The notes under the pieces: generated by a model
Seen by the model: the letters and a program-made list of their open reading frames with translations, nothing else
The model's database searches: none
What the model was told of the DNA's origin: nothing
Made by a program: the position numbers and the translations under genes
Shown here: positions 2,812-42,316 of the stretch, in pieces
Numbering within the stretch: position 1 is the stretch's first letter
Layout: each line of letters starts with the position of its first letter
Origin: Candidatus Staskawiczbacteria bacterium
GTDB lineage: Bacteria; Patescibacteriota; Minisyncoccia; Minisyncoccales; Staskawiczbacteraceae
Direction of reading: 5' to 3'
Assembly (NCBI GenBank): GCA_963756225.1
Contig: CAVWMZ010000003.1
Coordinates: 275,988 to 339,987, forward strand
Length of the DNA stretch: 64,000 nt

Positions 2812-3177
2812 ATGAATTCAAAAAAAATATTTATAACAGTCACTTTGGCTTGTTTATTATCAATAATTTTTATTCCTATCTTAGCTAAAGCCGCCCTGGT
2901 TAATTGCCAGGGTTCAGACTGCACCTTAGACATGCTTACTCAAGTAGGAACGCAAATCTACAGCCTTATTGTTAATGACATAGCTGCACCCCTGGGAACA
3001 TTGGCAATTTTAATCGGCGCGGTTTTAATGATGACATCCGCTGGAAACCCTAGCATGATGGGTCTTGGGAAAAAAGTTTTTTGGATTGCAGTTATCGGAT
3101 TGTTTTTAGCTCTTGGCACAAAAGCAATAATAAATACCATTATAAGCGCAACCGGATATACTGGATCGCCAGTTTAA
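2812..3177 (+). CDS. Small VirB2/TrbC-like (T4SS pilin-like) membrane protein
   Basis: 121 aa. It has a signal peptide (…ILAKA), a short Cys-containing segment (LVNCQGSDC), and two hydrophobic helices separated by the loop MTSAGNPSMMGLGKK. The same architecture forms the N-termini of the three large proteins at 24309-30233. Confidence 0.5.
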   Translation: MNSKKIFITVTLACLLSIIFIPILAKAALVNCQGSDCTLDMLTQVGTQIYSLIVNDIAAPLGTLAILIGAVLMMTSAGNPSMMGLGKKVFWIAVIGLFLALGTKAIINTIISATGYTGSPV

Positions 3178-10515: not shown

Positions 10516-10520
10516 TTCTA

Positions 10521-10549: not shown

Positions 10550-10613
10550 ATAGTATCGCCTGCTATTTAACAATTTCGTGAACCAACAGCCAACAGAAAG
10601 CGAGGATAAGACT

Positions 10614-13002: not shown

Positions 13003-14142
13003 TTAATAACTTATTTTTGTTCCTACGGGGAATCTTGCTAAAGGATTTACAGCTCCTATAACTTCGAAGTGAACATGGCATCCGGTTGCATCTCCAGTTC
13101 TGCCCATCAATCCTATAGTGTCTCCAACAGTAACTTTGTCTCCAGGTTTTACATAAACATACTCAAAGTGACCATAATAGGTGACGGTGCCATTTCCATG
13201 CAAAATTGTAACATAGTTTCCTTTGCCCAAATTCCAAGCATTATTAAATACGGCTCTTTGAACCACGCCGGAAGCTGCAGCATGAACTGGCGTGCCGCAT
13301 TTATTGGCAAGGTCAATGGCATTATAATAATGAAGCCCCTGGGTGATATCTCCTTCTGCCGGGTAAATAAAATAATTATTAGCTAAAGGAATTTGGTTAT
13401 TACTTATTGGCGCTGGTGCAGCATTTTTTGGCATTACTCCTCCAGGCACTATTAAAATATCGCCAATATAAATATCGTCTTGGTTTGCTAAATCATTAAA
13501 AGAAATTACGTCTTCTGCTTGCGCCTTATATTTTGCAGCAATGGCCGACATGGTGTCTCCAGATTTTACAAGATGCAAAACGCCATCTACCGGCAAGATC
13601 GTTAAACTCTGGCCGGCTTTTACCGCAGAAGAACTTGTTAGCTGGTTTGCCCAGGCTATGGTGTTAACGGATATATTATAAGAATCTGCAATTGATTTCA
13701 ATGTATCTCCAGGCTGAACAATATAGTTAGTTATATCTTTTTGGGTCTGGTTGGTTCCGCCAAACACGTCTCCCAAGGTTTTAGCAGATATAGCGCATGG
13801 CGTTGATACTGCACAAAGCGTATTGTCCTGCATTGTTTTTAATTCTGGAGTTTCTAATTGAATCGCATTTGCTTGGCTAAAAAATAAACTGTCTCCACTA
13901 GGAGCACCAGACTTATCAAAAAAAGAATTAAAAAATACGATATGACTTGAAGCTAGGCCACCCATATTAGCCGGGCTGTCGCAAGACGCATACATTCCCC
14001 AAAACAAGATGACAGAAACTAACCCGAAAAAAAATAGGGGTTTTTTAAATAACCTCTTAAAATTAGCCCCCTTTGTTGCATTTTTAGCAGAGAGCCAAGC
14101 CATTTTTATCCCTATTAAAATTCTGTTAAATATTTTTAACAA
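13003..14142 (-). CDS. LysM-domain M23 family metallopeptidase
   Basis: Two LysM repeats (YIVQPGDTLKSIADSYNISVNTIAWAN; HLVKSGDTMSAIAAKYKAQAEDVISFN). The M23 motifs are HYYNAIDLA…GNYVTILHGNGTVTYYGHF…GRTGDATGCHVHFEV. Confidence 0.85.
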   Translation of the reverse strand: MLKIFNRILIGIKMAWLSAKNATKGANFKRLFKKPLFFFGLVSVILFWGMYASCDSPANMGGLASSHIVFFNSFFDKSGAPSGDSLFFSQANAIQLETPELKTMQDNTLCAVSTPCAISAKTLGDVFGGTNQTQKDITNYIVQPGDTLKSIADSYNISVNTIAWANQLTSSSAVKAGQSLTILPVDGVLHLVKSGDTMSAIAAKYKAQAEDVISFNDLANQDDIYIGDILIVPGGVMPKNAAPAPISNNQIPLANNYFIYPAEGDITQGLHYYNAIDLANKCGTPVHAAASGVVQRAVFNNAWNLGKGNYVTILHGNGTVTYYGHFEYVYVKPGDKVTVGDTIGLMGRTGDATGCHVHFEVIGAVNPLARFPVGTKISY

Positions 14143-15444: not shown

Positions 15445-15686
15445 GTCTTGCTCCTTTCTTAGAAACAAATTTTCAATGCTGAAAATGGCCTGCTAGCTGC
15501 ATGCCACATTATTCCCAGCGAACTAATTTAATTGTGCTACTCCGACACCATAATGTCAAGTCTTCGCCCCACAAATTTGAGTTTTTAATTAAAATTTAAT
15601 GTAATCGAAGCTCTACTATAAAAAATTTACCGCTGGGTAAAGACTTGAACTTATTACCAAATTTTAAACTATGCTATAATATTCTA

Positions 15687-17025: not shown

Positions 17026-17214
17026 ATGGGTGTTAATAACTTGACTAGCTTGAAATTTTTAAATGGTGTAAAATCAAGTAATTCAAAAGAACAAATCGTT
17101 GAATGGCTTTCAAAAAATAACTTAAATTCAAATCAACGGGCAGAAACCCTTAGTGTTTCTGATTGGATAAATTTAACAAAAAGCTTCTCAACTTTTAAAA
17201 AAATAAAAAAATGA
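17026..17214 (+). pseudogene. Relic of the 3' end of an rsmA gene
   Basis: …KEQIVEWLSKNNLNSNQRAETLSVSDWINLTKSF aligns with the C-terminus of the intact RsmA (…KKIDEWLLKNNLKSNQRAETLSTEDWKKLSENF). The nucleotide sequence is diverged, so this is not a recent local duplication. Confidence 0.6.
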
Positions 17215-19235
17215 TAAAATTCTCTCAACCTTTAAAGAATAAAAAATTATTATTTTTTGTTTTTTTATTTATTTTTATCTTCGCGGTGAAAATAAACTTT
17301 GCGCAAGCCGCCGATTGCCCTAGTGGTGACAGTTGCTACTGCATGGAAAACACCTGTTTCCCATATTCAAACGCAGCAATAGCCATAGGAGGAAATCCTG
17401 TAGGAATCCCGTGTTTAAGAGACGTCGATTGTGCACCTTCTCCGACTGGCGATTGCCCTGGTGTCGATAACCTAAGCTACGGCAAGCAGGTTGCAGTGTC
17501 TCTCATAGACGCAGTAGCAGCATTTCCCAATTACATCGCCAAAACCGCCGGATCGCTTGCTTCTATTGGCATGGGCACCGTACTAACTTATCCAATAACA
17601 AATCCAAGCTCAGGATCCGGCCCTATTTCTACATCGGGAGCAACAGCTTTTGTGGCTGGCTGGAAATCAATGAGAGATTTGGCTAATATGCTTGTTGCTT
17701 TAGGTTTTGTTATTATTGGTATAGCAACCGCTCTAAGAATTAGAGAATACGAAGCCGGGAAAGCCCTTATGCCATTAATAATAGTAGCTATTTTAATCAA
17801 TTTTTCTTTATTATTCTGCGGGTTAATTATTGACGCCTCAAACGTGACAATGAACGGATTATTGGGGGGCGGGAGCACAGTAACTACAAGCGGATTTACT
17901 GCGCCATCTATGGGTACGGCCCTATATCAGGCCACGTTGAGCGGAGAATATTCATGGAAATGCCAAGCAGTATCCGCCGAAAGCGTAAGCGGCTATGCTC
18001 TTGTAGTTGTTGCTTATTCGTTTTTATACATGGTAATAGCGTTTGCCTTTTTATATCTTTTTCTTGTGATTCTAGCTAGATATGCCGTTCTTGGAATTCT
18101 ATTTATGCTTTCTCCACTTGGATTTATTTTTTGGGCATTTCCATTCCCGGGAGCAAAAGAACTGGGACAAAAATGGTGGAATCATTTCTTAAAATGGTCG
18201 TTTGTCGGCGTAAGCATGTGCCTTTTCCTTAACTTGGCCCTAGGGATATTAAACAACACCCCATCACTTAATGGCACCCAAACGCCAACCGTAGAAACGG
18301 TGATAGAACCCCTTTTCATTGTTATAATGGTAATTGTAGTGGGAATATACATTAGCGCCAAATCAAACGGAATAGCGTCAATGGCCAGTAAGGCAGTGAT
18401 AGGGGTGGCGACTGGCGGAGCTGCACTTGCGGGGGGAGCAATCGTCGCAGGAGCCGCAGGGGGCTCAAAGATGTTAAATAAAATGACCGGAGGAAAAGTG
18501 GCCGATGCTGGCAGACGAATTAGTAACGCAACCGGACGAGTTTTAGCAAAAGTTGGCCTAGCGGATAGGGAGGCGGTTGATGCAAAAGCTTCAGCGCCAC
18601 TTCAAGAAGCGAAAAAAGCAATGAGCGGCGCAAGCAAAGAAACGTTGACTTCACATGCCCAGGGCAAGGGAATTGGTGTCACCGAACAAAAAAGAGTAGC
18701 TTCAATAGAGGCCATGATTCAAAAAGGCGATATTGGCGACATAGGAGACACCGCGGCGCAACATGCTGCCGTTTCTCGGGTTGAAAATTATCACAAAACT
18801 ATGGGAACGAGTGCCGATTTTAATGTCAGAAAAACCGCAGAAGATCAAAACTATAAGTTAGCTGGCTTCAACGAGGCGAACGTGACAAAATTAAGATCAA
18901 GTCAGCCCGGACTCACAGATGCTGCTGCCAAAGACAAACTAGTCCAAACAAAGCTTGATGAAACATTGCCAGCAATGACCCACACCCAACTTAGAAATAT
19001 TGATGCACCACATCTTACCTCTGAACGAGTAAGCAGATTAACTCCAGAAAAACTTAGCGCATTTAGAACTGGCTCCAAAGACCAGATTGACCAGATCCAG
19101 GGACCAGATGTTAGGGGAAAAATGGATTCTGAACGCATAAATCTTGAGACAGATAAGCATGCTGGACAGAGGATAGATGAGGCCAAACTCTCAAAACTAA
19201 ACAACCAAGTCAAAGAGATAGATAACCTAGCATAA
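17211..19235 (+). CDS. VirB6/TrbL-like polytopic membrane protein (putative T4SS channel component)
   Basis: 674 aa. It has a signal peptide, a Cys-rich N-terminal segment, about 6-8 hydrophobic helices, a Gly/Ala-rich segment and a hydrophilic C-terminal tail. The call rests on architecture and on context next to VirB3-like and VirB4 genes. Confidence 0.45.
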   Translation: MIKFSQPLKNKKLLFFVFLFIFIFAVKINFAQAADCPSGDSCYCMENTCFPYSNAAIAIGGNPVGIPCLRDVDCAPSPTGDCPGVDNLSYGKQVAVSLIDAVAAFPNYIAKTAGSLASIGMGTVLTYPITNPSSGSGPISTSGATAFVAGWKSMRDLANMLVALGFVIIGIATALRIREYEAGKALMPLIIVAILINFSLLFCGLIIDASNVTMNGLLGGGSTVTTSGFTAPSMGTALYQATLSGEYSWKCQAVSAESVSGYALVVVAYSFLYMVIAFAFLYLFLVILARYAVLGILFMLSPLGFIFWAFPFPGAKELGQKWWNHFLKWSFVGVSMCLFLNLALGILNNTPSLNGTQTPTVETVIEPLFIVIMVIVVGIYISAKSNGIASMASKAVIGVATGGAALAGGAIVAGAAGGSKMLNKMTGGKVADAGRRISNATGRVLAKVGLADREAVDAKASAPLQEAKKAMSGASKETLTSHAQGKGIGVTEQKRVASIEAMIQKGDIGDIGDTAAQHAAVSRVENYHKTMGTSADFNVRKTAEDQNYKLAGFNEANVTKLRSSQPGLTDAAAKDKLVQTKLDETLPAMTHTQLRNIDAPHLTSERVSRLTPEKLSAFRTGSKDQIDQIQGPDVRGKMDSERINLETDKHAGQRIDEAKLSKLNNQVKEIDNLA

Positions 19236-19262
19236 TTAATAGTTATTAATTACTATAAAATC

Positions 19263-19880
19263 ATGGACGAACAAAATAATTTAAGAGTTATCTTCACAAA
19301 AAAAGCCGACGCAGTTCTTGCGGGCATTATGAATAAATATAATTTGGAAGAAAACGACGAGCAAACTAGCAAAAAAGTTTTAGAAAAAAAACCATTTAAT
19401 GTAACGACATTAAATCATCTTGCAAAAAAATTTGTAAGAGAAAATATGTCTAAGATTGATTTATCTAATTCACTACAAAAGGAAATAGAGCTCCCGCAAC
19501 AAACAGCAGATAAAGTATCTGACGAAATTATAACGACACTAATCCCATTATTAGAAAAAGCTCCTGAAGAAAAATTTAATGATCCGACCTTTAGAGAAGA
19601 AATATCTAAAAAAGTTACCGGAGAATCAGAGCCGCAAGAAAATAAAAATATTTTCTATAAGGTTGAACCCGCTACAAGCGTTGACGAAATAATTAAAAAA
19701 AATATTCTAGCCGCAACCGAAGAACCGAAAATTGCAGAACCTACAAAAATAGAGACTGCAACGCCTCCCAAAAAAAGAGAACGGATAAAAAAAATAATCA
19801 CTCCAGCGGAAGCTAAAGAGTCTAACCAACAAACAAATCAGACTAAAGGCTCAGATAGATATAGGGAGCCTATTGAGTAA
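19263..19880 (+). CDS. Hypothetical charged protein
   Basis: 205-aa ORF. No family recognised. Confidence 0.4.
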   Translation: MDEQNNLRVIFTKKADAVLAGIMNKYNLEENDEQTSKKVLEKKPFNVTTLNHLAKKFVRENMSKIDLSNSLQKEIELPQQTADKVSDEIITTLIPLLEKAPEEKFNDPTFREEISKKVTGESEPQENKNIFYKVEPATSVDEIIKKNILAATEEPKIAEPTKIETATPPKKRERIKKIITPAEAKESNQQTNQTKGSDRYREPIE

Positions 19881-19897
19881 AAAATTTACAAAAAAAA

Positions 19898-19934
19898 GGG
19901 GGTGGCTTCAGCAAACGCCGAAGCCACCCTTTTA
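19898..19934 (-). terminator. GC-rich terminator belonging to the high-GC SPFH-like gene
   Basis: The minus strand reads GGGTGGCTTC-ggcgtttgct-GAAGCCACCC followed by CCTTTTTTTT. Confidence 0.7.
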
Positions 19935-19951
19935 CTTACATTGACTGATAA

Positions 19952-21184
19952 CTAGGTGGACTCACCTTTATGTCTTTCCAACCAACTGGGTGAAGGTTGG
20001 CCTCCCGAAGCCTCTCCCTCCTGACCACCAACAGGTTTAGCGCCTGAGCCTTGCCCCCGACCGCCACGACCACCTTGTTTACCTCTGCCGCGCCCTAACG
20101 CGCCACCTATAACCTCGGCTCCGCCGAGAATGGCCGCATAATTAGGATCTATGGGCTTTCCACCGCTGCTGATGTCCAGTTCTTGTTTGGAGTAATTACC
20201 CCCAGCCAAGCCCTGAGCCCGCAGCAGTTCAAGCGACTGTTCTTTGCGATCGTAGGCGCCACTCTTTTTAAGAGCTTTAACGGCCACTTTTTCAGTTACC
20301 CCCAAACGCGCAGCCTCATCTTTAACCCATTGATCCATCATGATCTTGACTGGACCACCGAGCCGAGCAGCTTCAGCTTGAGCCAGCAAATCTGCTTCGC
20401 TTTTTGCTTTTAAGGCGGCCGTATATGCCGAGTCTTCGCTGATCTTTAGGATTACGATGGAGTTTGTCTGGATTTCCATTCCCCATCGCTCCGTGATGCC
20501 GTCGAATATAGGCGCTGCTGATGGCGTATCGTTTTCTTGGACAAGCTCGTTCCACAGCCTTACGCCGTCGCCCCTGGCTTCCTGGGCGTGTTGCCGAAAA
20601 CCGCATTTTATCCATGCCCGCAAAACCGCATCCAGCCTGTCTATTGTTTGTCTTGCTACATCGCGAGGCGAGATATACAAGTAGTGAATCGGATTAACGA
20701 CCCGTCTTGTCACCTTCGCCACAACATCCAGATTAACGTTCTCAGGATCCTTGGTTTGCGCCCCGGTACAAATTAAATCCGACGTTACATCGTTGAGCTG
20801 AACCAGTACCCCTCCACCGAATCCATCGGTCGGGTCATTGTGACTTTCATACTTAGCCGGACTAACCAATGGCCAAAGGTAAAAAATCCAGCCACCAATC
20901 CTCCAGATACACCAGCATCCACCGATATTAATCGGCCGATTTTCCTTAGGATTGATGGTGTCGTCACAGCAAATAAATCCGGACATGTCGGGCCTGAAGT
21001 GATAACCCGTGAATTCCAGGGCAGTGTAAACCCGTTTTCCCAAGTATTTAAACGATGCTGCCGTTGCCTCCTGCACAATCACAATCCGCAAGATGCCGAA
21101 AGCCCAAGCGATAATTGCGAGAACCGGTATGGCCACTACAATCCCAATCAACCAATACAACGTAAACATTTCAAAGTCGTTCAT
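19952..21184 (-). CDS. SPFH/band-7-like membrane protein with a Gly/Arg-rich tail (high-GC islet)
   Basis: 410 aa. N-terminal TM helix, then IVQEATAASFKYLG…, later …AEADLLAQAEAARLGG…, and a GRGRGKQGGRGGRGQGSG tail. The resemblance to prohibitin-type SPFH domains is by pattern only. Confidence 0.4.
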   Translation of the reverse strand: MNDFEMFTLYWLIGIVVAIPVLAIIAWAFGILRIVIVQEATAASFKYLGKRVYTALEFTGYHFRPDMSGFICCDDTINPKENRPINIGGCWCIWRIGGWIFYLWPLVSPAKYESHNDPTDGFGGGVLVQLNDVTSDLICTGAQTKDPENVNLDVVAKVTRRVVNPIHYLYISPRDVARQTIDRLDAVLRAWIKCGFRQHAQEARGDGVRLWNELVQENDTPSAAPIFDGITERWGMEIQTNSIVILKISEDSAYTAALKAKSEADLLAQAEAARLGGPVKIMMDQWVKDEAARLGVTEKVAVKALKKSGAYDRKEQSLELLRAQGLAGGNYSKQELDISSGGKPIDPNYAAILGGAEVIGGALGRGRGKQGGRGGRGQGSGAKPVGGQEGEASGGQPSPSWLERHKGEST

Positions 21185-21378
21185 GGCGATTCCTTTCTTT
21201 TTGAATTATTTAATCAATTAACGGCCGGCACGGGAAACTTCCCACACCTATTAAGCTGTCTTTTTCAATGTTCTATAGTGCTTTAATTATATCATATTAA
21301 AATCATATTGTCAATATGTTGAGAACTTTTATTGCCTTTGATTTTTTATACATGATATAATGAACGAATCTTAAATTT

Positions 21379-21787
21379 ATGGAACAATATCCTATACCAC
21401 AATTTATTGAATCTGAGAGCAAGATTGCCTTCTTTATATCCTTTAGACAATTCTTTTATCTTGTGGGAGCTGGTGTTATTTGCTTTTTCATATATTGGAT
21501 TATGCCTCGTTTTCTTTTTTATATAGTAGCTTTTATAATTTTCCTCATAGCAGTAATTCTTGCTTTCGGAACTATCGGTGGCACCCCTATATTAAACTGG
21601 CTTATGGGAGGCAATAGGCTTCTCCTTAGACGGCAAAGATTATACATGGAAAAAGAAAGAATCTCCCTATCCGTTTAAGCCAATAAAAAGAACCCAAATA
21701 AAAAAAATAGACCAAGGACCCGTCTTACAAGCACAAACAAGCCAATTAAAGAAAACAAGGACGCTCGTAGAATTAAAAACAAAATAA
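21379..21787 (+). CDS. PrgI/VirB3-like small membrane protein, apparent +1 frameshift around 21596-21660
   Basis: MEQYPIPQFIESESKIAFFISFRQFFYLVGAGVICFFIYWIMP… is the typical PrgI-family start. The alternative frame continues …AIGFSLDGKDYTWKKKESPYPFKPIKRTQIKKIDQGP… to a stop at 21785-21787, 9 nt before the next gene. Confidence 0.5.
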
Positions 21788-21796
21788 TCTAAAATT

Positions 21797-22457
21797 ATGG
21801 CAGAATCAGCTACACAAGCATTTTTAGAAGTACAAGATATAAGAGAGGGGGTTTTACTTTTAAAAAATAATTCTATAAGAGGAATTTTAATGACCTCTTC
21901 TATAAATTTTGCATTGAAATCGGAAGAAGAACAAACGGCTATAATTTATGCTTTTCAAAATTTTCTAAATTCTTTAGATTTTTTCTGCCAAATTGTTGTT
22001 CAGTCCAGGAATATAAACATAACCCCATATTTAGACAGTTTAAAAGATTTAGAAGACAAGCAAACTAATGAACTCTTAAAAAGACAGACTACGTCATACA
22101 GAGAGTTTATAAAAGAAATGGTTGTAGGAGATGTAGTTATGACAAAAAGTTTTTACATAGTTGTACCATATAACCTAATGGAAATTTTTGGACTGAAGGG
22201 TGCCCAAAAGAAAATAAACTTTGGAGAGGCCCCTGGAGTAAAAAACAACAAACCAATAACTGATGATGAATTCCAAAGATGTAAATCGCAATTATGGCAA
22301 AGAATGGAGTATGTATCAATGGGCCTAAGAAGATGCGGGCTGGAAGCAGTGCCGCTTAACAACGCCCGAACTTATAGAACTTTTTTGGTCCATACACCAT
22401 CCAGATCAAGCAGAAATTGGATATTATCCAGAAATACTTCCCGAGTTATTAAAATAA
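21797..22457 (+). CDS. T4SS-associated protein of unknown function, apparent frameshift at CCC 22364-22367
   Basis: N-terminus QAFLEVQDIREGVLLLKNNSIRGILMTSSINFALKSEEEQTAIIYAFQNFLNSL… resembles the start of Gram-positive conjugation ATPase partners. After the shift the frame reads …LNNAELIELFWSIHHPDQAEIGYYPEILPELLK and stops at 22455-22457. Confidence 0.4.
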
Positions 22458-22469
22458 TTTTAAAACGTT

Positions 22470-24275
22470 ATGGCATTTCTAGACAATCTTCTTGGTAAAA
22501 AAGAAGAAGATCTAACACAAAAAATTTTTCAAGAAGAGGCGTTTGACGTGAGAGATATTATAGCCCCTCCATATATTGGCGTACTGCAAGATCATATAAA
22601 ATTAGGAGAAAGGCTTGCCAAGTCCTTCTTTGTTTTTTCTTATCCTAGATATTTAAATACGGGGTGGTTTTCACCCGTCATTGATTTAAATACTCCAATG
22701 GATATTTCATTTTTTATACATCCTGTCAGCAGCGAATTGATTTTAAAAAAATTAAGAAAAAAAGTTACAGAAGTTTCTTCCGAACTTTTAGAGAGAGAAG
22801 AAAAGGGATTAATTAGAGATCCTGCGCTAGAAACTGCATATAAAGATATTGAGAGCCTTAGAGATAATTTGATGACTGCTCAAGAAAAAATGTTTAGACT
22901 TGGTCTTTATATTACAATTTATGAAACTTCTGAAAAAGAATTAAAAGATACCGAACTTACATTAAGATCAATTTTTGAGTCTAGATTAATTTATATTAAA
23001 GCCGCTTTATTTAAACAAAAAGAAGGATTTATTTCTTGCAATCCTTATGGAATGGACTTAATAGAAGTCCACACTCCAATGGACACAGAGCCTTTGTCAA
23101 CATGTTTTCCATTTATTTGTTTTGATTTAAGCTCTAACGAAGGAATTTTATATGGGATAAATAGACACAATAATTCTTTAGTTTTATTTGACAGATTTAG
23201 TTTGGAAAATGCAAATATGGTGGTTTTCGCAAAATCTGGCGCAGGAAAATCATATGCCATAAAACTGGAAATTTTAAGATATTTGATGCAGGGAGTTGAT
23301 TGTATAATTGTTGACCCAGAAAACGAATATGAATTTTTAGCCGATGCAGTTGGCGGAGCATTCTTGAAAATTTCTTTAACTTCAGCAAACCATGTAAATC
23401 CTTTTGATTTGCCGCTGCCCGGCCCAGACGACAACCCAGAAGATATTTTAAGATCTAATGTTATAAACTTAGTTGGGCTTTTAAGAATTATGTTGGGAGG
23501 GTTAACTCCTGAAGAAGATAGCATTTTAGACGAAGCCCTAACAGAAACTTATGCAATAAGAGATATAACTGCGCAAACAGATCCCAAAACATGGGCGACC
23601 AACACTCCCTTAATGTCTGACTTTGAAGAAGTTTTAGAAAGTATGACGGGAACAGAGTCTCTGGGTAAACGTATTAAAAAATTTACCAAAGGAACTTTTT
23701 CTGATTTCTTCAACCAACAATCTAATATTTCAATGGATAAAAATCTAGTTGTTTTTGGGATAAGAGACATGGAAGAATCGCTAAGACCAATCGCACTATA
23801 TATCATCATGAGATATATATGGAATATTGTTAGAGAGAAATTAAAAAAGAGAATTTTGGTTATTGATGAAGCCTGGTGGCTAATGCAATCTCCAGACGGA
23901 GCTTCCTTTCTTTACGGTATAGTTAAAAGGGGTAGAAAATATTGGCTGGGAGTTACAACTATTACCCAGGATGTAGCCGACTTTATGAAATCAGATTATG
24001 GCAAAGCAATTGTCACAAACTCTTCATTGCAACTTTTAATGAAACAGTCTACTGCCGACATCGATTCTGTGCAAAAAGTATTTCAACTAACCGAGCAAGA
24101 AAAATATTTATTACTGGGAGCGGCAGTTGGAGAGGGGTTATTTTTTGCCGGAAGAAAACACGTGTACCTATCGGTTGTTGGCAGCCAAACAGAGAACCAA
24201 ATAATTACAACAAATCCTCAAGAAGTTCTGCAAAACAAAGCGGAAAAACAAAAACTAGAATCTGCCCAAAATTAA
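22470..24275 (+). CDS. virB4: VirB4/TraC-family type IV secretion ATPase
   Basis: 601 aa. The N-terminal VirB4 domain reads …YPRYLNTGWFSPVIDL…DISFFIHP…. Walker A is AKSGAGKSY, followed by …IIVDPENEY… and a Walker B-like ILVIDEAWW. Confidence 0.8.
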   Translation: MAFLDNLLGKKEEDLTQKIFQEEAFDVRDIIAPPYIGVLQDHIKLGERLAKSFFVFSYPRYLNTGWFSPVIDLNTPMDISFFIHPVSSELILKKLRKKVTEVSSELLEREEKGLIRDPALETAYKDIESLRDNLMTAQEKMFRLGLYITIYETSEKELKDTELTLRSIFESRLIYIKAALFKQKEGFISCNPYGMDLIEVHTPMDTEPLSTCFPFICFDLSSNEGILYGINRHNNSLVLFDRFSLENANMVVFAKSGAGKSYAIKLEILRYLMQGVDCIIVDPENEYEFLADAVGGAFLKISLTSANHVNPFDLPLPGPDDNPEDILRSNVINLVGLLRIMLGGLTPEEDSILDEALTETYAIRDITAQTDPKTWATNTPLMSDFEEVLESMTGTESLGKRIKKFTKGTFSDFFNQQSNISMDKNLVVFGIRDMEESLRPIALYIIMRYIWNIVREKLKKRILVIDEAWWLMQSPDGASFLYGIVKRGRKYWLGVTTITQDVADFMKSDYGKAIVTNSSLQLLMKQSTADIDSVQKVFQLTEQEKYLLLGAAVGEGLFFAGRKHVYLSVVGSQTENQIITTNPQEVLQNKAEKQKLESAQN

Positions 24276-24308
24276 TAAATATTTAACTTCTAAAAATAGA
24301 ATAAGAAA

Positions 24309-27300
24309 ATGGCCTTTTGGAAAAAACTTATTTTCTTTTTTCCTGCTTGCTGCGTCGCTTTTCTAAGCGCTAGTTTTGTTTTAGCCCTTGAAGTAAATCT
24401 TCCAGGCTTAGGAGGAAACCCCGACATTGGCACATATATTTGTTATCTTTTTAGCAAGGGAGTAAGTATAGCCGTTTCTATAGCTGTTGTAGCGGTAGCC
24501 GTTGGCGGAGTTTATTATCTGGTCTCCTATGGAAGTGGAAAAATTACGAACGAAGGGAAAGAATGGATAAAGGCAGGAATAACCGGGCTCTTAATAATTG
24601 TCTGCTCAACTTTGATTATGCAGACAATCAGTCCGAAGTTAGGTAGCTGCAAAATTGGCGTCCTACCACAACTTAATTTAAATCCTCTGCCCAGCAATAC
24701 CCCATTGCCCTCATATGTAACCGTCAACACATATAAAGAAATCCCTATTGGCACATTAACTGAAACACTTTTAGCAAGAACAATAAATTGTTATGGTTTT
24801 GACCAAAGTGGGAACCCTATTAACGGCGACTTTTTAGAAACAGCTAAAAGTTGCTCGGTAGACACAGATTGTGGCATAGGCAGCGGCGAAACGTGCAATC
24901 ATAAAACCAATAAATGCGATGATCCCTCGCCCACCTATATGAACCACGACAGGGCAGACTGCCTAACACAATTAGTTACGGGTGCCCAAGAAAAAGCTAA
25001 TGTCATTTCTGCTCTATCGGACCAAATAGCCAGCCTGATGAATACGTGCGATTGCGCTACATATGGAGATTGCAAGCCTCATTGTAACCCTATTACGGGT
25101 TGCGTTCTTAATGGTACAAGTCCTGATGGCTCAGGAAAAACCTCTGGGCTAGGAACTGATTGCACCGGGTCATGCACTGGAGGCGGTGATTCAACGGGCT
25201 CGTGTGTTAATGGCTCATGTCTAGAGGCTCCAAATCAAACCCCGCCAGATTGTTGCCCCACAACCGCCAGTGACACAATAACAAACACCCCCATCTCCGG
25301 GCTAACAACAAAACAACAAATTGAGCATGGGCCAGTTAATGTTGCTGCTAATGTTGGCGCAAGCGGAGGCGGGACAGCGGAAGCTCCGTCGGCATGCAAA
25401 TGCCCAGCATCATACGGTGGAGGATACAGTCCCGGATGCTGCTCGTTAACTGGAGTTTCAGGCTCAACCACAACCCCAACAGCATGCCCGTGTACTAGCG
25501 GCCCCTATGCGGGCGGCTATGATTCTAGCTGCTGCACAACCACAGATGATAGCTGTAAAACTACTGCCACTGAATATCACGGGCTAGATGAATTTAGGTG
25601 TAACCCAAACCCGATTAATGGTGATTTTCAACCTTGCGACGCTGCTTCAATAAAAAATTTTGTTGAAGAAAATGTACAAATAAATGGCGAGACAGTTGTC
25701 GCAATTAACCCAGACAATTGGAAAAAAATAAATTTATTACAGCAGTTAACCTATCTAAAACAAAAAATAGACGATGTTAAAGAAACAATGAGGGAGGATG
25801 AAACCAATCTAGATAAAGCAAGATATATGTTGGCATCTCCGCAATGCTATTTAGCGATACCCTATGTCGATCTCGTTGACACTTATGAGAATACAGACCA
25901 AACACATACAGTTGTTTTACCTGTAAAAGTTTTTAATGACCCTACCGTTACTACTACGCCCCCGCAGCCCGTAGATTCGTCAAAATATTGCAATGGATTT
26001 AATTATAATAATTCGAGTTGTTTAAAACAATGCGATGATGCATGCCCAGACTCAAGTCCTCTGGCCATGCAATCATACAATGCGTGCGGAGCTTGCGACA
26101 CCACTATTTTAAGTGGAGCAGCGCTACAGACCTGTGAAGACACACAAGAAAAATGCATAGAGAAGGCTTACACCTCAAGACCATGCATATATGCTCAAGA
26201 TACCAGCCAAACTTTTAAAGATTGTATTGGCTCTTGTCAGGATAACTGTGAATATGGTTGCAACCAAAAATATGCCGCGTGCTCTGATGCAAATAGTTTT
26301 TGCCAATCTCAGTGTGGCGATACAACTCAAGGTAATTCAAGTTGTGTTTTGGGTCACGCCGACGAGTGCCTGTTTGGAGCCAGTAATTTTGTAGACTGCA
26401 CAAATGCAAATAAGGCCACCGACCAAGGCAATACCAATTATTGCATCCAAAATGCATATATGTGCAAGAATGGATCTAACGAATATTCTGGATATCCTGA
26501 CTGTGTTATCCAAAATTCAAATTGTTCGAACTACACAGATCCGATAAGCTGCCAAAATGCCCCACAATCAGAGTGTATGTGGGATAATGCAGGATTTTGC
26601 ACCCAAACCGATTATTCATCTTATCTGTATAATTACCCGAATTCACAAAAATGCGCATATCCGGATATTCCTGCTACAAGCGGCCCGTGCACAAGTAGTT
26701 CCAGCCCCGATGCCACTTGCCAGGCCGTATGCCCAGAAACAACAAAATGCACCTCAGATTCGAGTTGTCCTTTGTGCCCATGCGATATTTTAAATGCTTC
26801 TCTTAATTTCCCTGTACCAAATACGTCTGTGCCTTATAAAAGTAGCCCCGGCTTTAATGCCGGAGATGAGGGCGTTAATAATAACCAACAAAAAGTTTCG
26901 TCGGATTTAATGACCGGACCGCAATGTGACCAATATAATTATAATGATGACCCATTAACTTTTTATTGTGAAGATAATTGGTGGAATGCGCCAGACAAAG
27001 AGGAGAATGGGAGCACGCCTGGAGGGCCTGGGGGCCCCGGAAATGCCACTGGCCCAGCAGGAACGGGTACTGGATCGTTGATACCAATAGGACAAGAAAA
27101 AATTTGCCCCGCAGAAAACGAAATACCAATCGGACAAACAATTGACGATGCGAAAAAATGGGCTAATAATATAATAACTTCAATAGGCAGCATAGATCAA
27201 GATATACAGGTGATAATTAACCAAATAACTACAATGGGGAAAGCAAAGGACACAAGCCCCGTACAAAATTACTGTAAATGTGATGCGAAATATGAGAATA

Positions 27301-27827
27301 CCAACCCAATTTGCCAAACTAATTGCAATTATAAACAATGGTACGTTTCAGATGGGAATGGAGGATATGAACCTGCTTGTAATTGCACCTTTGTCCCATG
27401 CCAAGGACAACCATGTCAACAGATGATTAACTATCATTCACAGCTTTGGAATGATTATCAAAGTTTTGAAAATGACTATATAAGTTTTTATACTGATGTG
27501 CTATATGACCAGAGGAGTGATATATTTAAAAAATTAACTTATTCGCGACAAACAACAAACAGCTGCAGCTCAACAAATACTATTTATGGAGGAGAGCAAG
27601 ACAGGCTACTAAGCTGCACTAGGGCCGAAGACGAATTACTCACTCCTATTACCGGAGGTAAAATAAGTTTCGATAATAAAACTTGGCCCAATTATTGCTA
27701 TGGGCAACAATTGGGCAACGTTGCTAATGCACCCCTAACAGATAATTGGTTTTGTTGCCAAGAGTACACCAAAACCCCAACGATAAATAATAATCCTATT
27801 TATAATATACAAAAAAATAATTTTTAA
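24309..27827 (+). CDS. Giant (1172 aa) cysteine-dense secreted protein with an N-terminal pilin-like two-helix module
   Basis: Signal peptide, then TM1 (VSIAVSIAVVAVAVGGVYYLV), the loop SYGSGKITNEGKEW, and TM2 ending IMQTISPKL. About 1050 aa follow, full of CxC/CxxC spacings, with an internal repeat CKCPASYGGGYSPGCC / CPCTSGPYAGGYDSSCC and a GGPGGPGNATGPAGTGTG linker. Confidence 0.6.
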   Translation: MAFWKKLIFFFPACCVAFLSASFVLALEVNLPGLGGNPDIGTYICYLFSKGVSIAVSIAVVAVAVGGVYYLVSYGSGKITNEGKEWIKAGITGLLIIVCSTLIMQTISPKLGSCKIGVLPQLNLNPLPSNTPLPSYVTVNTYKEIPIGTLTETLLARTINCYGFDQSGNPINGDFLETAKSCSVDTDCGIGSGETCNHKTNKCDDPSPTYMNHDRADCLTQLVTGAQEKANVISALSDQIASLMNTCDCATYGDCKPHCNPITGCVLNGTSPDGSGKTSGLGTDCTGSCTGGGDSTGSCVNGSCLEAPNQTPPDCCPTTASDTITNTPISGLTTKQQIEHGPVNVAANVGASGGGTAEAPSACKCPASYGGGYSPGCCSLTGVSGSTTTPTACPCTSGPYAGGYDSSCCTTTDDSCKTTATEYHGLDEFRCNPNPINGDFQPCDAASIKNFVEENVQINGETVVAINPDNWKKINLLQQLTYLKQKIDDVKETMREDETNLDKARYMLASPQCYLAIPYVDLVDTYENTDQTHTVVLPVKVFNDPTVTTTPPQPVDSSKYCNGFNYNNSSCLKQCDDACPDSSPLAMQSYNACGACDTTILSGAALQTCEDTQEKCIEKAYTSRPCIYAQDTSQTFKDCIGSCQDNCEYGCNQKYAACSDANSFCQSQCGDTTQGNSSCVLGHADECLFGASNFVDCTNANKATDQGNTNYCIQNAYMCKNGSNEYSGYPDCVIQNSNCSNYTDPISCQNAPQSECMWDNAGFCTQTDYSSYLYNYPNSQKCAYPDIPATSGPCTSSSSPDATCQAVCPETTKCTSDSSCPLCPCDILNASLNFPVPNTSVPYKSSPGFNAGDEGVNNNQQKVSSDLMTGPQCDQYNYNDDPLTFYCEDNWWNAPDKEENGSTPGGPGGPGNATGPAGTGTGSLIPIGQEKICPAENEIPIGQTIDDAKKWANNIITSIGSIDQDIQVIINQITTMGKAKDTSPVQNYCKCDAKYENTNPICQTNCNYKQWYVSDGNGGYEPACNCTFVPCQGQPCQQMINYHSQLWNDYQSFENDYISFYTDVLYDQRSDIFKKLTYSRQTTNSCSSTNTIYGGEQDRLLSCTRAEDELLTPITGGKISFDNKTWPNYCYGQQLGNVANAPLTDNWFCCQEYTKTPTINNNPIYNIQKNNF

Positions 27828-27839
27828 CAATCACCACTT

Positions 27840-28919
27840 ATGACAAAAAAATTATACAAAAAAAAATATTTCCTAGTTTTGTTATTTTTTATTGCTTTTC
27901 TTTTAGGAAGGGCTGGCATTGCTTCCGCGAGCGAAACATTGATATGTCCTTCGGGTTCGGGATCGAGTATTGGAGCTTGTGTTGTGGCTATTTTTAAAGA
28001 AGGCATAGCTATTGCCGGGGGCTTAGCCGCTGCCTCTTTTGCAGTGGGAGCAATTATGTATGCGATGTCGGGAGTTAGCCCCGAAATGGCAAACAGCGGG
28101 AAAGATAGGATGAGAGGTGCTGTTTTAGGGATAGTGCTTTTAGCTTGCTCTTGGACCATTATGGATACAATTAATCCTAAACTAGTGGGGACTTCTTTAT
28201 CTCCTATAAGCCCCCAAACTCCGCCCGATACAACCCTCGGATCAGGTGTTTATCTTTTTTCAGATTCAGCTTGTCAAAGTCCTCCAGAAGTCATCGCAGA
28301 TAGCCTAGCCACCATTGACTCAAACATTAAAGCATATTCAATTGTTAATGACGATTCAGACCCAACAGATAAAATTGACTATGGAGTTATTTTTCATCAA
28401 AACAATGGACTCCAAAGCGGTGGTCTCTGTAGCGACAATAGCGGCCAGCCGATAACCCAAGCAACCTGTAAGCCTGTTCCTTTTAATGGCGCCTTAAGTG
28501 TTTTCCAGTTAAACCCAGATCCAAAAACCTCCGGGTCTGGCGTAGAGTTTTATAGCGAACCTTATGGGTCAGACAGGGGAACCTCGGCTGGATATTACAT
28601 AGTAAAGGGTAGCGACATAACACTTCCATCTCTCGAAAAAGATCCAACTGCGATGCAATTTCTTTGGACAAATATTAAACAAACAGATGCATACGAATCA
28701 ACTTATAAATATTTCGCCGATCGTCCGGGGTCTATGGATTTAAATGGAGATTATTTGGTCGCCCTTTTCTCTCAAGGGACCTCTGGACTTTATGGAGCCG
28801 TGGGGAAATATTGTGAAACGTTTATTGATGATGCTAAAGACTTAAACGCAGAACCAATAATTGCATCTGGCACAGGGACCGGAAAATTAACTAATATTGA
28901 AATAATCCCAATTAAATAA
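27840..28919 (+). CDS. Pilin-like N-terminal module fused to a 240-aa variable domain (paralog A)
   Basis: Signal peptide, then …ICPSGSGSSIGAC…, TM1, the loop SGVSPEMANSGKDR, and TM2 ending IMDTINPKL. The C-terminal domain shares SGVYLF…, GDYLVALF… and …IEIIPIK with the next gene. Confidence 0.55.
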   Translation: MTKKLYKKKYFLVLLFFIAFLLGRAGIASASETLICPSGSGSSIGACVVAIFKEGIAIAGGLAAASFAVGAIMYAMSGVSPEMANSGKDRMRGAVLGIVLLACSWTIMDTINPKLVGTSLSPISPQTPPDTTLGSGVYLFSDSACQSPPEVIADSLATIDSNIKAYSIVNDDSDPTDKIDYGVIFHQNNGLQSGGLCSDNSGQPITQATCKPVPFNGALSVFQLNPDPKTSGSGVEFYSEPYGSDRGTSAGYYIVKGSDITLPSLEKDPTAMQFLWTNIKQTDAYESTYKYFADRPGSMDLNGDYLVALFSQGTSGLYGAVGKYCETFIDDAKDLNAEPIIASGTGTGKLTNIEIIPIK

Positions 28920-28958
28920 AATCATTTAAAGTCCGCAATCTATTATAGTAGAGCGAAT

Positions 28959-30233
28959 ATGGCAACAAAAAACCGAAAAAAATTTTGTTTTTGCACTTTA
29001 CTTTTTACTCTTTTATTTGTTAATTTTTTTTATATACAAATAAATAAAGTTGCTGCCCTAGAAGTACAGTACCCAACTATAACCGTACTTGGCCAGAGCA
29101 GTCCAAATGTCACGGATTTACCTAGCTATATAACATATTTATACTATGCGGGGTTGGTTGTCGGTCTTGGCTCTGTATTTATTTCTTTAGCTATGGCTGG
29201 AGTAATGTTTTTTTTATCCCCTATTAGTCCCGAGGCAAAAGCCGCTGCAAAAGACAGAACCTTTGGAGCCATATCGGGTTTACTTATTTTAGTGTTAACA
29301 TATTTAATTTTATATACTATAAATCCCCAATTAAATGCGTTTAGTTTTAATAAAATTCAGCCATCTTCGTTGTCGGTAAAAACAACTACCGCTTCGGGTG
29401 TTTATTTATATACGTCTGGATGCACGGCTCAAGATATCCAGCCCAACACAACAAGTATTGCAGATTTAGGTAAATTAAAAAAGAAAATTGGTTCTGTGGG
29501 TATTGTCCAAGATACGGCTAATGGTATTTCTTATGTGTCTATCTTATATTCTAACCCTAATTTTTGGGGCAAATGCTTATATATAAACCCTGGTAGTAGC
29601 TGCGAGTCCGCAAACGATCCCGCCACTAATATGCCGCTCGCCTCATCTGTTTCTATTTATCAATACAATCCTAGCCCAAGTGGTGATGGGGTTTATTTTT
29701 TCCGTAAATCCTGTTTTAATAATGGATATTATAATGATATGAATAGCTTGCTCCAACATTGCAAAAAAGACAGTGGGGGATACTATGAGGTTAGCAATGG
29801 CAGCATTGCCGGTGGCGTTAGTGGGAACATGTATTATTCTAAATTGGGCGATTTAACTTTCACAAATGTTCCAGACGACGAAAAAGACTGCACAGAATAT
29901 GATAAAAATGGAGACTGTTGTACTAAGGCTGATACCGCCTTAGGGTGCGATCAAGATGGTAGAGTAGCGCCGACACTTGGAGGAGAAAATATTTCTTCTA
30001 TAATAGTAAATGGAGACTATGTTGTATTGCTTATTTATGTCGCCAAAAATGATAGTGGCTCGGGGCCATGGACGGCCTGCCAAGAATTCCCTACTAGCTA
30101 TGACACAAATAAAGTGGGACCAAGACAAATAAAGTGGGAAAATATAAGAAACACAAACGGCATAGATGACGGTGGCACAAATTTAGGAAGCGTCATCCCT
30201 AATTATGTTGCCATCATACCAATACAAAGATAA
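28959..30233 (+). CDS. Pilin-like N-terminal module fused to a 300-aa variable domain (paralog B)
   Basis: Signal peptide, TM1, the loop SPISPEAKAAAKDR, and TM2 ending LYTINPQL. The C-terminal domain shares SGVYLY…, GDYVVLLIY… and …VAIIPIQR with the previous gene. Confidence 0.55.
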   Translation: MATKNRKKFCFCTLLFTLLFVNFFYIQINKVAALEVQYPTITVLGQSSPNVTDLPSYITYLYYAGLVVGLGSVFISLAMAGVMFFLSPISPEAKAAAKDRTFGAISGLLILVLTYLILYTINPQLNAFSFNKIQPSSLSVKTTTASGVYLYTSGCTAQDIQPNTTSIADLGKLKKKIGSVGIVQDTANGISYVSILYSNPNFWGKCLYINPGSSCESANDPATNMPLASSVSIYQYNPSPSGDGVYFFRKSCFNNGYYNDMNSLLQHCKKDSGGYYEVSNGSIAGGVSGNMYYSKLGDLTFTNVPDDEKDCTEYDKNGDCCTKADTALGCDQDGRVAPTLGGENISSIIVNGDYVVLLIYVAKNDSGSGPWTACQEFPTSYDTNKVGPRQIKWENIRNTNGIDDGGTNLGSVIPNYVAIIPIQR

Positions 30234-30254: not shown

Positions 30255-30830
30255 GTCCTCCCCGCACTCCGCTAATCGCTACGTGCGGGGTTTCCTTTGA
30301 ATCTCATTCGAATTCTCCAGTTAAATCAATTCCACGGTCAAAGTTATTCTGCATTTCGATGTATTTTCTGATGTGCGCCTCATTGAGTCCGACTGTAGAT
30401 ACAAAGTATCCGGTGCTCCACACGCCGTCATCTCCATAAATTTTTGAAATAAATTTGAACTTCTTTTTCAAAACGAACGCGCTGTCAGCTTTCAATTTCT
30501 GCACCACCTCCGAGATGGAATACTTTGGTGGGACTTCAATCAGAATATGGACATGGTCACCTCCAGTATTGATTTTTATCAAATACCAATCAGGATATTT
30601 TTTCTGTGTTTTATACAAAACTTTCACGAGCTCTGCACGGACATACTCTTTCAAAAATTTACGTCAATAACGTGTGCCCCAAACAATATGATATTCTGTC
30701 TGATACACAGTGTGATTTAACTGACGAATTCTCATGATAACAGTTTAGCACGTCTTCGCGTGCTAAACCATTCCTCCCCGCCCTCCGGCGGACTTCCGTC
30801 CGCCTCAACGCCTACGGGCGGGGTTTCCTG
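30255..30830 (-). mobile_element. IS200/IS605-family element (tnpA only) with subterminal hairpins
   Basis: Hairpins CCCCGCAC…GTGCGGGG (30260-30290) and CCCCGCCC…GGGCGGGG (30776-30823) are both followed by GTTTCCT. There is also a perfect 10-bp stem GTTTAGCACG/CGTGCTAAAC at 30743-30768. These flank a Y1 transposase gene. Confidence 0.7.
30304..30735 (-). pseudogene. tnpA: IS200/IS605 Y1 transposase TnpA with an in-frame TGA
   Basis: The minus strand from ATG 30735 reads MRIRQLNHTVYQTEYHIVWGTRY-TGA-RKFLKEYVRAEL…GGDHVHILIEVPPKYS…WSTGYFVSTVG. The stop (30664-30666) sits where the family has Arg (…YRR…). Confidence 0.75.
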
Positions 30831-31382: not shown

Positions 31383-31384
31383 AT

Positions 31385-32137: not shown

Positions 32138-32144
32138 TTTTATT

Positions 32145-32501: not shown

Positions 32502-32506
32502 TTTTA

Positions 32507-42259: not shown

Positions 42260-42316
42260 GTTTTTTCATTTTAATTATTCCGACCTCATCAAGGTAATGG
42301 ATACTCCTATTAAAAG

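Follow-up and report, generated by a model that had tools for sequence, protein, structure and literature searches.

VirB2-like hairpins fused to large extracytoplasmic domains at a chromosomal type IV secretion locus of Candidatus Staskawiczbacteria

The subject of this report is a type IV secretion system (T4SS) locus on the chromosome of a Candidatus Staskawiczbacteria bacterium, in which three consecutive genes encode proteins of 1172, 359 and 424 amino acids (aa) that, as supported by the evidence below, combine a VirB2/T4SS_pilin-type transmembrane hairpin with a large extracytoplasmic domain. The locus occupies positions 17211-30233 of a 64-kb stretch of contig CAVWMZ010000003.1 (GC content 36.5%), hereafter called the window, which is the segment of the chromosome around the replication origin. 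It is a chromosomal T4SS typical of the Patescibacteria and has, as a whole, already been described; what is new is the fusion architecture and its consistency across the lineage. In full-text literature searches on PF18895 and on Patescibacteria pilins we found no description of VirB2-type pilins with appended domains (heads), in agreement with a first-pass annotation of this DNA that had called such pilins uncharacterised for T4SSs.

That annotation, made from the letters alone, had listed nine open reading frames (ORFs) in a T4SS-type locus, all of which we recovered at their coordinates and in the gene order given. The locus as such is not an oddity: Quinonero-Coronel et al. (2025; PMC12102498) report a chromosomal T4SS of Patescibacteria with a VirB4 resembling that of the MPF_FATA class of mating-pair formation systems, together with TrsD, PrgI, VirB6 and PF18895 pilins, no relaxase and a position near dnaA, ksgA and rnpA, and Wang et al. 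(2023; PMC10633639) report that the T4SS is essential in the Saccharibacterium Southlakia epibionticum. Reviews describe the function of the Patescibacteria T4SS as unknown and its pilins as its most unusual trait (PMC12857230, PMC11665869).

Results

Fusion proteins of the window

The three genes lie on the forward strand directly after virB4, at 24309..27827 (1172 aa), 27840..28919 (359 aa) and 28959..30233 (424 aa). As shown by alignment, their products share an N-terminal module, consisting of a signal peptide, a first transmembrane segment (TM1), a short basic loop and a second transmembrane segment (TM2), which is also alignable with the free-standing 121-aa VirB2-like pilin encoded elsewhere in the window. 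The hairpins span approximately residues 40-113, 44-117 and 54-127 of the three proteins, respectively, and, in line with the ISPKL, INPKL or INPQL ending noticed in the first-pass annotation, TM2 ends in TISPKL in the 1172-aa protein, TINPKL in the 359-aa protein and TINPQL in the 424-aa protein. Behind the motif, the largest protein has a disordered linker and a head of ∼1050 aa; the 359-aa protein has a Pro-rich linker and then a beta-rich head, to which the head of the 424-aa protein is paralogous. The same annotation had included a short Cys segment in the shared architecture; this part fell away, because the segment is found in the 121-aa pilin and the 359-aa protein and is absent from the 424-aa protein. 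Similarity of the module among the three paralogues reached BLAST E values of 1e-6 to 1e-15, and the 424-aa module matched the other two and their orthologues at E 1e-6 to 3e-15. Proteins of the VirB2/TrbC/T4SS_pilin family are small and consist of a single domain (∼70-120 aa when mature), a size that the proteins of 1172, 359 and 424 aa, with their folded heads, do not share.

Profile matches of the hairpins to the PF18895 (T4SS_pilin) family were marginal in the window and stronger among some relatives, and a hidden Markov model (HMM) built from the hairpin family matches all three window proteins. The 359-aa protein scored 26.3 bits (E 8e-6), just below the cut-off of 26.6, and the 1172-aa protein 14.3 bits (E 0.044), its orthologues reaching 2e-4. 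PF18895 was matched at E <= 1e-3 by 84 of 90 related long representatives, some of them over the cut-off (e.g. 27.3, 29.2, 33.2 and 44.6 bits), and 3 of the 9 hairpin ORFs from distant loci that were scanned individually also exceeded the curated cut-off. Several homologues of the 359-aa protein carry PF18895, one being named 'pilin' by NCBI, as is also true of a 1216-aa protein homologous to the large one.

For comparison with classical pilins, a profile of 148 fused hairpins was run in hhalign against six plasmid-encoded proteins annotated as VirB2/TrbC. Colinear similarity extended over 65 columns, covering the whole mature pilin, with E 0.0034 and a probability of 9.5%; the controls (reversed sequence and PrgI) yielded 1-15 columns at E 0.05-0.19. 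A search of PDB sequences with a four-sequence hairpin profile returned nothing meaningful. These comparisons suggest a weak but consistent link between the hairpin and classical VirB2, and the level of evidence equals that on which PF18895 proteins are called VirB2-like in the literature, as reported in PMC12102498.

The motif that closes the hairpin is strongly conserved in the fused class. It is present in 82 of the 92 homologues of the 1172-aa protein, each of its N, P and L is conserved in 90% or more of 90 representatives, and the pattern T[IVL][NSD]Px[LIVMF] stands at the end of the hairpin in 94 of the 134 ORFs of the survey described below and in 130 of 148 top representatives of a library search. 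The 121-aa pilin and related short pilins, by comparison, carry no TINPxL motif at their C termini. Orthologues of the 424-aa protein, 41-49% identical, were found in the related loci L001 and L003.

Spread of the fusions and linkage to virB4

We next surveyed 80 species-representative loci with VirB4 sequences 54-91% identical to that of the window, from Staskawiczbacteria, Nealsonbacteria, Wildermuthbacteria, Kerfeldbacteria, Uhrbacteria and others, and scanned all their ORFs with the hairpin HMM. Hairpin ORFs, 134 in total, were found in 72 of the 80 loci, and 123 of them lie downstream of virB4 on the same strand. The 124 ORFs left untruncated by contig ends all encode at least 150 aa, with a median of 476.5 aa and total lengths of 236 to 2095 aa. 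A simple failure to see short pilins does not explain this, since the HMM detects the 121-aa pilin of the window. Consistent with these results, when the search started from the proteins, 7 of the 8 genomic contexts had the fusion genes immediately behind virB4, with the order of the locus unchanged. A separate search of a representative library used a profile that kept 476 positions after sequence weighting, including the beta head, and its 51,764 clusters at E <= 1e-3 cannot, for that reason, serve to count fusions; only the architectures in its top list were used.

Structure and diversity of the heads

The heads of the window proteins measure 230-1050 aa, and in the AlphaFold2 models of both the 359- and the 1172-aa protein a disordered linker connects the helical hairpin to a folded head. 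In the model of the 359-aa protein (mean predicted local distance difference test score, pLDDT, 72), a signal helix is followed by helices 44-78 and 81-117, the linker and a beta head at 136-358. The best Foldseek match of this model was the beta-gamma-crystallin Hahellin (probability 0.93, target-normalised TM-score 0.62, with a weak E value of 0.058), and among the 90 related representatives Crystall was matched by 4, Crystall_3 by 4 and Inhibitor_I36 by 2; the 359- and 424-aa proteins of the window have no match to the beta-gamma-crystallin Pfam families. Taken with these models and matches, the 359-aa head is probably beta-gamma-crystallin-like. The 359- and 424-aa heads are paralogous in their first part (E 3e-17), as the first-pass annotation had proposed for some of the appended domains.

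The model of the 1172-aa protein, built from 83 aligned sequences, reached pLDDT 82.3 and a predicted TM-score of 0.81, with hairpin helices at 40-75 and 81-107. It had no significant Foldseek match in PDB or in BFVD, a library of viral structures (best E 2.3 and 1.5). There are 80 Cys in the head, and over the full length of the protein the alignment of the 83 sequences has 19 Cys columns that never vary; this fits an extracytoplasmic location.

In relatives, the domains behind the hairpin include recognisable hydrolases and adhesin-type folds. A Peptidase_M23 or M10 (matrixin-like) domain follows the hairpin in some homologues of the 1172-aa protein, heads of the SLT lytic transglycosylase or beta-gamma-crystallin type occur in related representatives, and in more distant virB4 loci the heads comprise four InlB B-repeats, SpaA-like prealbumin (SpaA_2), Ig/Fn3 and lamin-tail (LTD) domains. 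Three proteins of the representative library (P0222, P0225 and P0230) have 3-4 tandem hairpins, each closed by TINPxL and with no signal peptides between them, followed by an SLT domain; these would be poly-pilin precursors or else serve a VirB1-like enzyme as polytopic anchors.

The heads evolve faster than the hairpins, and both evolve far faster than VirB4. Computed over 15 related genomes, identity to the window was 69-92% for VirB4, 26-66% for the hairpins and 16-52% for the heads, with residues 351-415 of the 1172-aa protein hypervariable (0-28%). The first-pass annotation had raised the question whether the C-terminal domains vary on a conserved N-terminal module. Among close relatives the heads are not swapped but are fast-evolving orthologues, and only across wider lineages do different kinds of head occur.

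The free 121-aa pilin

The 121-aa VirB2-like pilin gene (2812..3177, +) lies between tRNA-Arg(tcg) (2708-2782) and tRNA-Lys(ctt) (3271-3344), 14 kb from the virB4 locus, and its product is the only small pilin in the window. It matched PF04956 (TrbC) at E 7e-4 and PF18895 at E 1.5e-3 (19-20 bits), both under the curated cut-offs. The tRNA-pilin-tRNA arrangement is kept in five metagenome contigs (L094, L095, L096, L098 and L099) with pilins 41-53% identical, which suggests that the pilin is co-expressed with the tRNAs. We regard the 121-aa protein as a candidate for the major pilin subunit. A gene for an IS1595-family transposase (4504-5190, -) is found nearby.

Components of the predicted membrane platform

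The locus begins with a TrbL/VirB6-like polytopic protein of 674 aa (17211..19235, +) that has a signal peptide, a Cys-rich N terminus, a transmembrane core and a hydrophilic tail of ∼250 aa. The protein itself has no match in Pfam or NCBIfam. However, 117 homologues were detected, many with precomputed matches to PF19590 (TrbL_3) or PF04610 (TrbL/VirB6); PF04610 was matched by 15 of 33 aligned family members (best E 2.5e-7), the gene occupies the equivalent position in L003, L004, L006, L007, L112 and L114, and the positional orthologues in L006, L007, L112 and L114 are annotated as TrbL_3. Because of this transitive homology and synteny, the VirB6-like call of the first-pass annotation holds. 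Single-sequence PDB matches to lipases and cutinases (E 2e-4, residues 115-249) were not reproduced by the family profile, whose PDB search returned low-complexity matches only, and a lipase/cutinase assignment was rejected. The next gene (19263..19880, +) encodes the charged hypothetical protein of the earlier listing, which turned out to be a conserved protein of 205 aa with no transmembrane segment and no family match in profile scans; it has orthologues at the same position in L001 and L003 (28% identity) and in many surveyed loci.

Directly upstream of virB4 are a PrgI/VirB3-like gene and a TrsD-like gene. The former (21379..21787, +) matched PF12666 at E 1.6e-8, over the curated cut-off, as expected from its earlier assignment. 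An extra A at 21613 ends its ORF at 21678, giving 99 aa in place of the 135 aa that are intact in L004, L001 and L003. The latter (21797..22457, +) encodes a 219-aa free-standing homologue of the VirB4 N-terminal domain, which gives an identity to what had been listed as a 220-aa partner protein: it matched NF041427 (TrsD) at 1.4e-5, NF045975 at positions 111-217 and NF045971 at positions 11-104, and it is 82-83% identical to intact 219-aa orthologues. Here too an extra A, at 22358, shifts the frame, and the other frame runs on PELIELFWSIHHPDQ to a stop at 22455-22457.

The VirB4 ATPase (22470..24275, +; 601 aa) is of the Gram-positive type (MPF_FATA, CD1110) and lacks an N-terminal domain of its own. 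It scored 347.3 bits against NF045971, the CD1110 family of Gram-positive conjugative elements (cut-off 325), covering model positions 175-732 of 752, with a VirB4 model of a Mycoplasma integrative and conjugative element as runner-up; it also matches PF19044, PF12846 and PF01935, contains the Walker A motif AKSGAGKS already pointed out in the first-pass annotation, and is 92% identical to its orthologues in L001 and L003. Judged from these profile positions, the N terminus that VirB4 lacks is supplied by the TrsD-like protein. A separate trsD gene is known from pGO1, and TrsD is reported as the commonest T4SS component found in Patescibacteria (PMC12102498).

Two other readings of these ORFs were rejected. 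The 233- and 601-aa ORFs are not one split or pseudogenised VirB4, since a real stop lies between them, intact relatives have two genes and TrsD is known as a separate protein. Matches of VirB4 and TrsD to PHROG 'terminase' families we take as generic P-loop (HerA-FtsK) similarity and not as a phage origin. Among relatives, VirB4 is 1262-1270 aa long, with intein splicing and LAGLIDADG endonuclease domains, in L006 (5784-9581), L007 (5693-9505) and L114 (5771-9559). An extra small ORF of 98-169 aa stands between virB4 and the large Cys-rich gene in L006 (9651-9947), L007 (9509-9997), L112 (9474-9983) and L114 (9563-9958); the window lacks it, its virB4 and large Cys-rich gene being 33 nt apart, and the L006 and L007 copies are not matched by the hairpin HMM.

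An antisense stomatin-like gene

On the opposite strand, between the gene for the charged protein and the PrgI-like gene, lies a gene for a 410-aa SPFH/stomatin-like membrane protein (19952..21184, -) with an N-terminal transmembrane segment and a Gly/Arg-rich tail. The first-pass annotation had taken it for a foreign high-GC insert. A positional orthologue exists in every well-covered relative, with 37-38% identity for those in L001 (1554-2732) and L003 (1734-2987), and the gene has a GC content of 0.50-0.54 and a third-codon-position GC content (GC3) of 0.47-0.56 in three genomes of 34-37% GC; GC3 of the other window genes measured is 0.26-0.37. The 410-aa protein alone has no match to PF01145 (Band_7), which is matched by 6 of 8 positional orthologues (best E 7.8e-9), and a profile of these 8 orthologues matches stomatins in the PDB (PH stomatin 3bk6 at 2e-8). 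A foreign origin is ruled out by the equally GC-rich positional orthologues together with the SPFH homology, and for the same reasons the gene is a conserved stomatin-like member of the locus. It is preceded by a predicted sigma-70-like promoter with a 12/12 consensus match (21314-21286, -). Just past its stop, between two convergent units, a consensus scan found a strong terminator-like hairpin (19900..19929, read 19929-19900 on the minus strand) with a 13-bp stem of 9 G-C pairs followed by a T run.

Setting of the locus and assembly differences

The locus is flanked by ksgA (15645-16514, identified by Pfam) on one side and by jag, yidC, rnpA and dnaA (30876-34345), followed by dnaN, on the other; the latter genes were recognised by eye from their translations, and the order of jag, yidC, rnpA and dnaA is the Pfam-annotated order in L001 and L003. 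The arrangement from a LysM-M23 gene and ksgA to jag-yidC-rnpA-dnaA recurs in L001, L003, L006, L007, L112, L113 and L114, in agreement with the T4SS loci of Patescibacteria reported in PMC12102498. The nearest VirB4 sequences are from Candidatus Staskawiczbacteria assemblies (89-92% identity), a group that the same publication places in the class Paceibacteria. The LysM-M23 gene (13003..14142, -; Pfam LysM 1e-25, M23 6.6e-25) encodes a cell-wall hydrolase and adjoins the T4SS locus also in L007, L112 and L113; from this position it is a possible VirB1-type helper, and VirB1-like proteins with M23 and LysM domains are on record in Patescibacteria (PMC12102498).

A Pfam scan of 30 ORFs of the window (those of the locus and 20 others, including every one of at least 500 aa) detected no relaxase, coupling-protein, VirB11 or outer-membrane family, as the first-pass annotation had stated. 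Both the relaxase and the VirD4/TcpA-type coupling protein, which a conjugative (DNA-transfer) T4SS needs, are thus absent from the 64-kb window.

Two small features border the locus. A 62-aa ORF (17026-17214, +) overlaps the start of the VirB6-like gene and repeats the KsgA C terminus (LSKNNLNSNQRAETLSVSDW versus LLKNNLKSNQRAETLSTEDW at the end of 15645-16514); it appears to have been left behind by a duplication or an insertion in the interval from ksgA to the T4SS locus. At the other end, the last fusion gene is immediately followed by a gene for an IS200-like Y1 transposase (30304-30654, -), which separates the T4SS locus from jag.

L004, an independent (Logan) assembly of the same population that is 99.5% identical to the window, was used to judge the broken genes. 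Both the PrgI gene and the TrsD-like gene are intact in L004, which in turn is without the C at 24583, a 1-nt difference that splits the 1172-aa gene there. In the window, dnaN (34742-35874) and the gene of a penicillin-binding protein (35923-38074) are each split into several ORFs and are intact in relatives. All of these differences and splits are likely assembly errors. The fusions are not assembly artefacts, as their orthologues are intact in many independent assemblies.

Discussion

Comparison with known systems

The locus resembles the Patescibacteria T4SS in its MPF_FATA VirB4 with an adjacent TrsD-like protein, in PrgI/VirB3, VirB6/TrbL and PF18895 genes near virB4, in the lack of a relaxase or coupling protein nearby and in its site beside ksgA, rnpA, dnaA and dnaN. 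It departs from the published accounts in its pilin-like genes. Those accounts present the VirB2-like genes of Patescibacteria as small pilins, in arrays of 2-11 and most in Saccharimonadia and Microgenomatia, and the supplementary table gives PF18895 coverage and no protein lengths; here and in 72 of 80 related species, by contrast, the virB4-linked hairpin genes found all carry heads. Nor do the sections consulted of the accounts of Patescibacteria T4SSs mention an SPFH gene.

Similarities extend to the Gram-positive MPF_FATA systems (PrgI/PrgJ/PrgH of pCF10 and TrsC/TrsD/TrsE of pGO1/pSK41), with which the locus shares a CD1110-type VirB4, PrgI, a separate TrsD-like protein, a VirB6/PrgH-like polytopic protein and the lack of an outer-membrane core. 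It differs from them in that the window has no relaxase, coupling protein, origin-of-transfer (oriT) context or PrgB-type adhesin, and in possessing VirB2-like hairpin proteins, which Gram-positive systems lack (PMC12857230). With the VirB2/TrbC/TraA pilins of the T, F and RP4 pili, the fusions share a signal peptide, two hydrophobic helices, a short basic loop and ends predicted to lie outside, as well as being encoded with VirB3, VirB4 and VirB6 and a weak colinear profile similarity; unlike these pilins, which have ∼70-120 aa when mature and no extra domain, they have heads of 230-1050 aa and the T-I-N-P-x-L cap.

A filament-assembly module that presents an adhesin or enzyme domain to a target surface is known from the modular type IV pilins PilB and PilC of Streptococcus sanguinis and from the tip adhesins VirB5 and CagL. 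The likeness to these is one of analogy only: the modules of type IV pilins are unrelated, as those proteins use a single N-terminal helix and the PilB/PilC/PilD machinery, and VirB5 is a separate soluble protein and not a VirB2 fusion.

Proposed mechanism and alternatives

We propose, with moderate confidence, that the three are modular VirB2-like proteins: the T4SS platform would handle their hairpins, and their heads would be displayed outside to contact the host or remodel the envelope. The platform would consist of the TrbL/VirB6-like channel subunit, PrgI/VirB3, the free TrsD-like VirB4 N-terminal domain and the Gram-positive-type VirB4, with the stomatin-like protein as a conserved extra scaffold member. 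As judged from sequence features and the many conserved Cys, cleavage of the signal peptide would leave the N terminus outside, TM1 would run inward, the basic loop would be cytoplasmic and TM2 would run outward, capped by T-I-(N/S)-P-x-L, after which a flexible linker would carry the head outside the cell. In F and T pili, the termini of the pilin face the outside of the filament, and therefore a C-terminal extension would point outward. The hairpin may be the part that the VirB4/VirB3/VirB6 platform handles, as it does VirB2 in classical systems, and the heads may be shown at the machine in one of two ways: on a filament that consists largely of the small tRNA-flanked pilin, with the fusions as minor or tip subunits, or on a short stalk through the wall. 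In either arrangement the heads would act on the host cell that carries these bacteria, by contacting its envelope or modifying it. Consistent with such a role, a study of a Patescibacteria enrichment lists proteins with a T4SS-pilin domain with the most strongly expressed extracellular genes of unknown function and treats them as adhesion-related (PMC10936435). On sequence alone, roles in attachment, DNA uptake and effector display are inseparable.

Several points weigh against this proposal. No PF18895 score in the window exceeds the cut-off, the 424-aa protein itself lacks any Pfam match, the hhalign probability is only 9.5%, and the beta-gamma-crystallin call combines a weak Foldseek match (E 0.058) with Pfam matches in relatives only. 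Pilus formation by a Patescibacteria T4SS is hypothetical, as is polymerisation of these proteins, and because a head of 25-115 kDa per subunit is hard to fit into VirB2-type helical packing, the fusions would at best be minor subunits. Further, PrgI and the TrsD-like gene are frameshifted here, and if the shifts were real this copy would be inactive.

The size of the heads would also fit an explanation in which the hairpin is a membrane anchor only and the proteins are fixed, non-polymerising surface or wall-spanning parts of the T4SS that form no pilus, standing in for otherwise missing VirB8/PrgL, VirB1/PrgK and adhesin functions. The hydrolases of Gram-positive T4SSs are membrane-anchored, the fused proteins reach a total of 2095 aa, and the tandem-hairpin-SLT proteins P0222, P0225 and P0230 resemble polytopic anchors and not pilus subunits. 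Homologues of VirB8 and VirB1 are, moreover, reported to be scarce in Patescibacteria (PMC12102498). However, a simple anchor needs no VirB2-like hairpin with a loop and cap conserved across 134 ORFs, one transmembrane segment would suffice, and the module is recognisably that of the free small pilin, so that we consider this explanation rather unlikely. The conserved cap itself lends some weight to a further possibility, namely that the fusions are precursors in which cleavage at T-I-N-P-x-L releases the head as an adhesin or enzyme, frees pilin units, or does both, the hairpin being an export or targeting leader tied to the T4SS. The classical pilins RP4 TrbC and VirB2 are trimmed and cyclised at their C termini; in the fused class the N, P and L are nearly invariant and 130 of 148 representatives have the motif, the free short pilins are without the motif, and in the poly-pilin proteins it occurs once per hairpin at a spacing of ∼98-115 residues. 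Yet Pfam and NCBIfam scans revealed no candidate peptidase among the genes of the locus, and N-P at the membrane boundary could equally be a helix cap before a flexible linker, as in the AlphaFold2 models; cleavage therefore strikes us as improbable, more so than a pure anchor.

The marginal Pfam scores and low hhalign probability mentioned above, together with the strong conservation of gene order near the origin in any case, would also be expected if the linkage were incidental, that is, if these were ordinary secreted or surface proteins near a T4SS and the origin, with hairpins that are pilin-like by hydrophobic composition only. We regard this as very improbable. Among the hairpin ORFs, 123 of 134 are directly downstream of virB4 on the same strand, with VirB4 identities of only 54-91% and with differing flanks (e.g. 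in L007), and the VirB4-based survey argues against most hairpin-plus-head genes sitting without virB4. In addition, PF18895 is matched by most relatives (84/90), 3 of 9 distant ORFs score above its curated cut-off, members have already been named 'pilin' by NCBI, and the reversed-sequence and PrgI controls fail to align.

Significance

If pilin-like genes throughout a class do carry adhesin and hydrolase heads, this points to host contact and envelope remodelling, and not to DNA transfer, as the task of a T4SS that was reported essential in the one species tested and is without DNA-transfer parts (PMC10633639, PMC11665869, PMC12857230). A broader version, which we offer as speculative and on the whole doubtful, is that the VirB2-type hairpin may be a general display or export module across a large part of the Patescibacteria, by which any fused domain (adhesin, peptidoglycan hydrolase, protease or new Cys-rich fold) would be handed to VirB4/VirB6 and either mounted on a conjugative-type filament or cleaved at T-I-N-P-x-L; the T4SS would then have its own pilin-fused heads as main cargo and be a device for gripping and opening hosts.

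In practical terms, the heads are concrete targets for antibodies, binders, labelling in cryo-electron tomography and host-range prediction, and the T-I-N-P-x-L motif provides a handle for mutation or proteomic mapping. Two objects for further study are the family of ∼1050-aa Cys-rich extracellular domains, which has a confident predicted structure and no structural relative found in our searches, and the poly-hairpin proteins fused to SLT domains. For annotation, the results carry a warning that PF18895-based counts of 'VirB2 pilins' mix small pilins with large modular proteins.

Additional features of the window

Downstream of the origin genes, the region 40444-48385 is a probable integrated mobile element unrelated to the T4SS. 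It contains a large serine recombinase (40444-42099), a DUF5906 protein (43545-45164) that is primase/helicase-like by eye, a Prim-Pol domain protein (45200-45682) and a T5orf172 protein (47786-48385). It is followed by a restriction-modification cluster (50065-54811) with a type III res subunit (50065-52455), an N6/N4 DNA methylase (52448-54175) and an ORF at 54215-54811 that is methylase-like as judged by eye. On the other side of the T4SS locus, a 110-aa ORF (10578-10910, +) contains an exact tandem duplication of ∼35 residues, FSEPDKEILRGDGTGLVRSGTLRLLLEKNFGKDVL, and the opposite strand is also open from 10496 to 10840.

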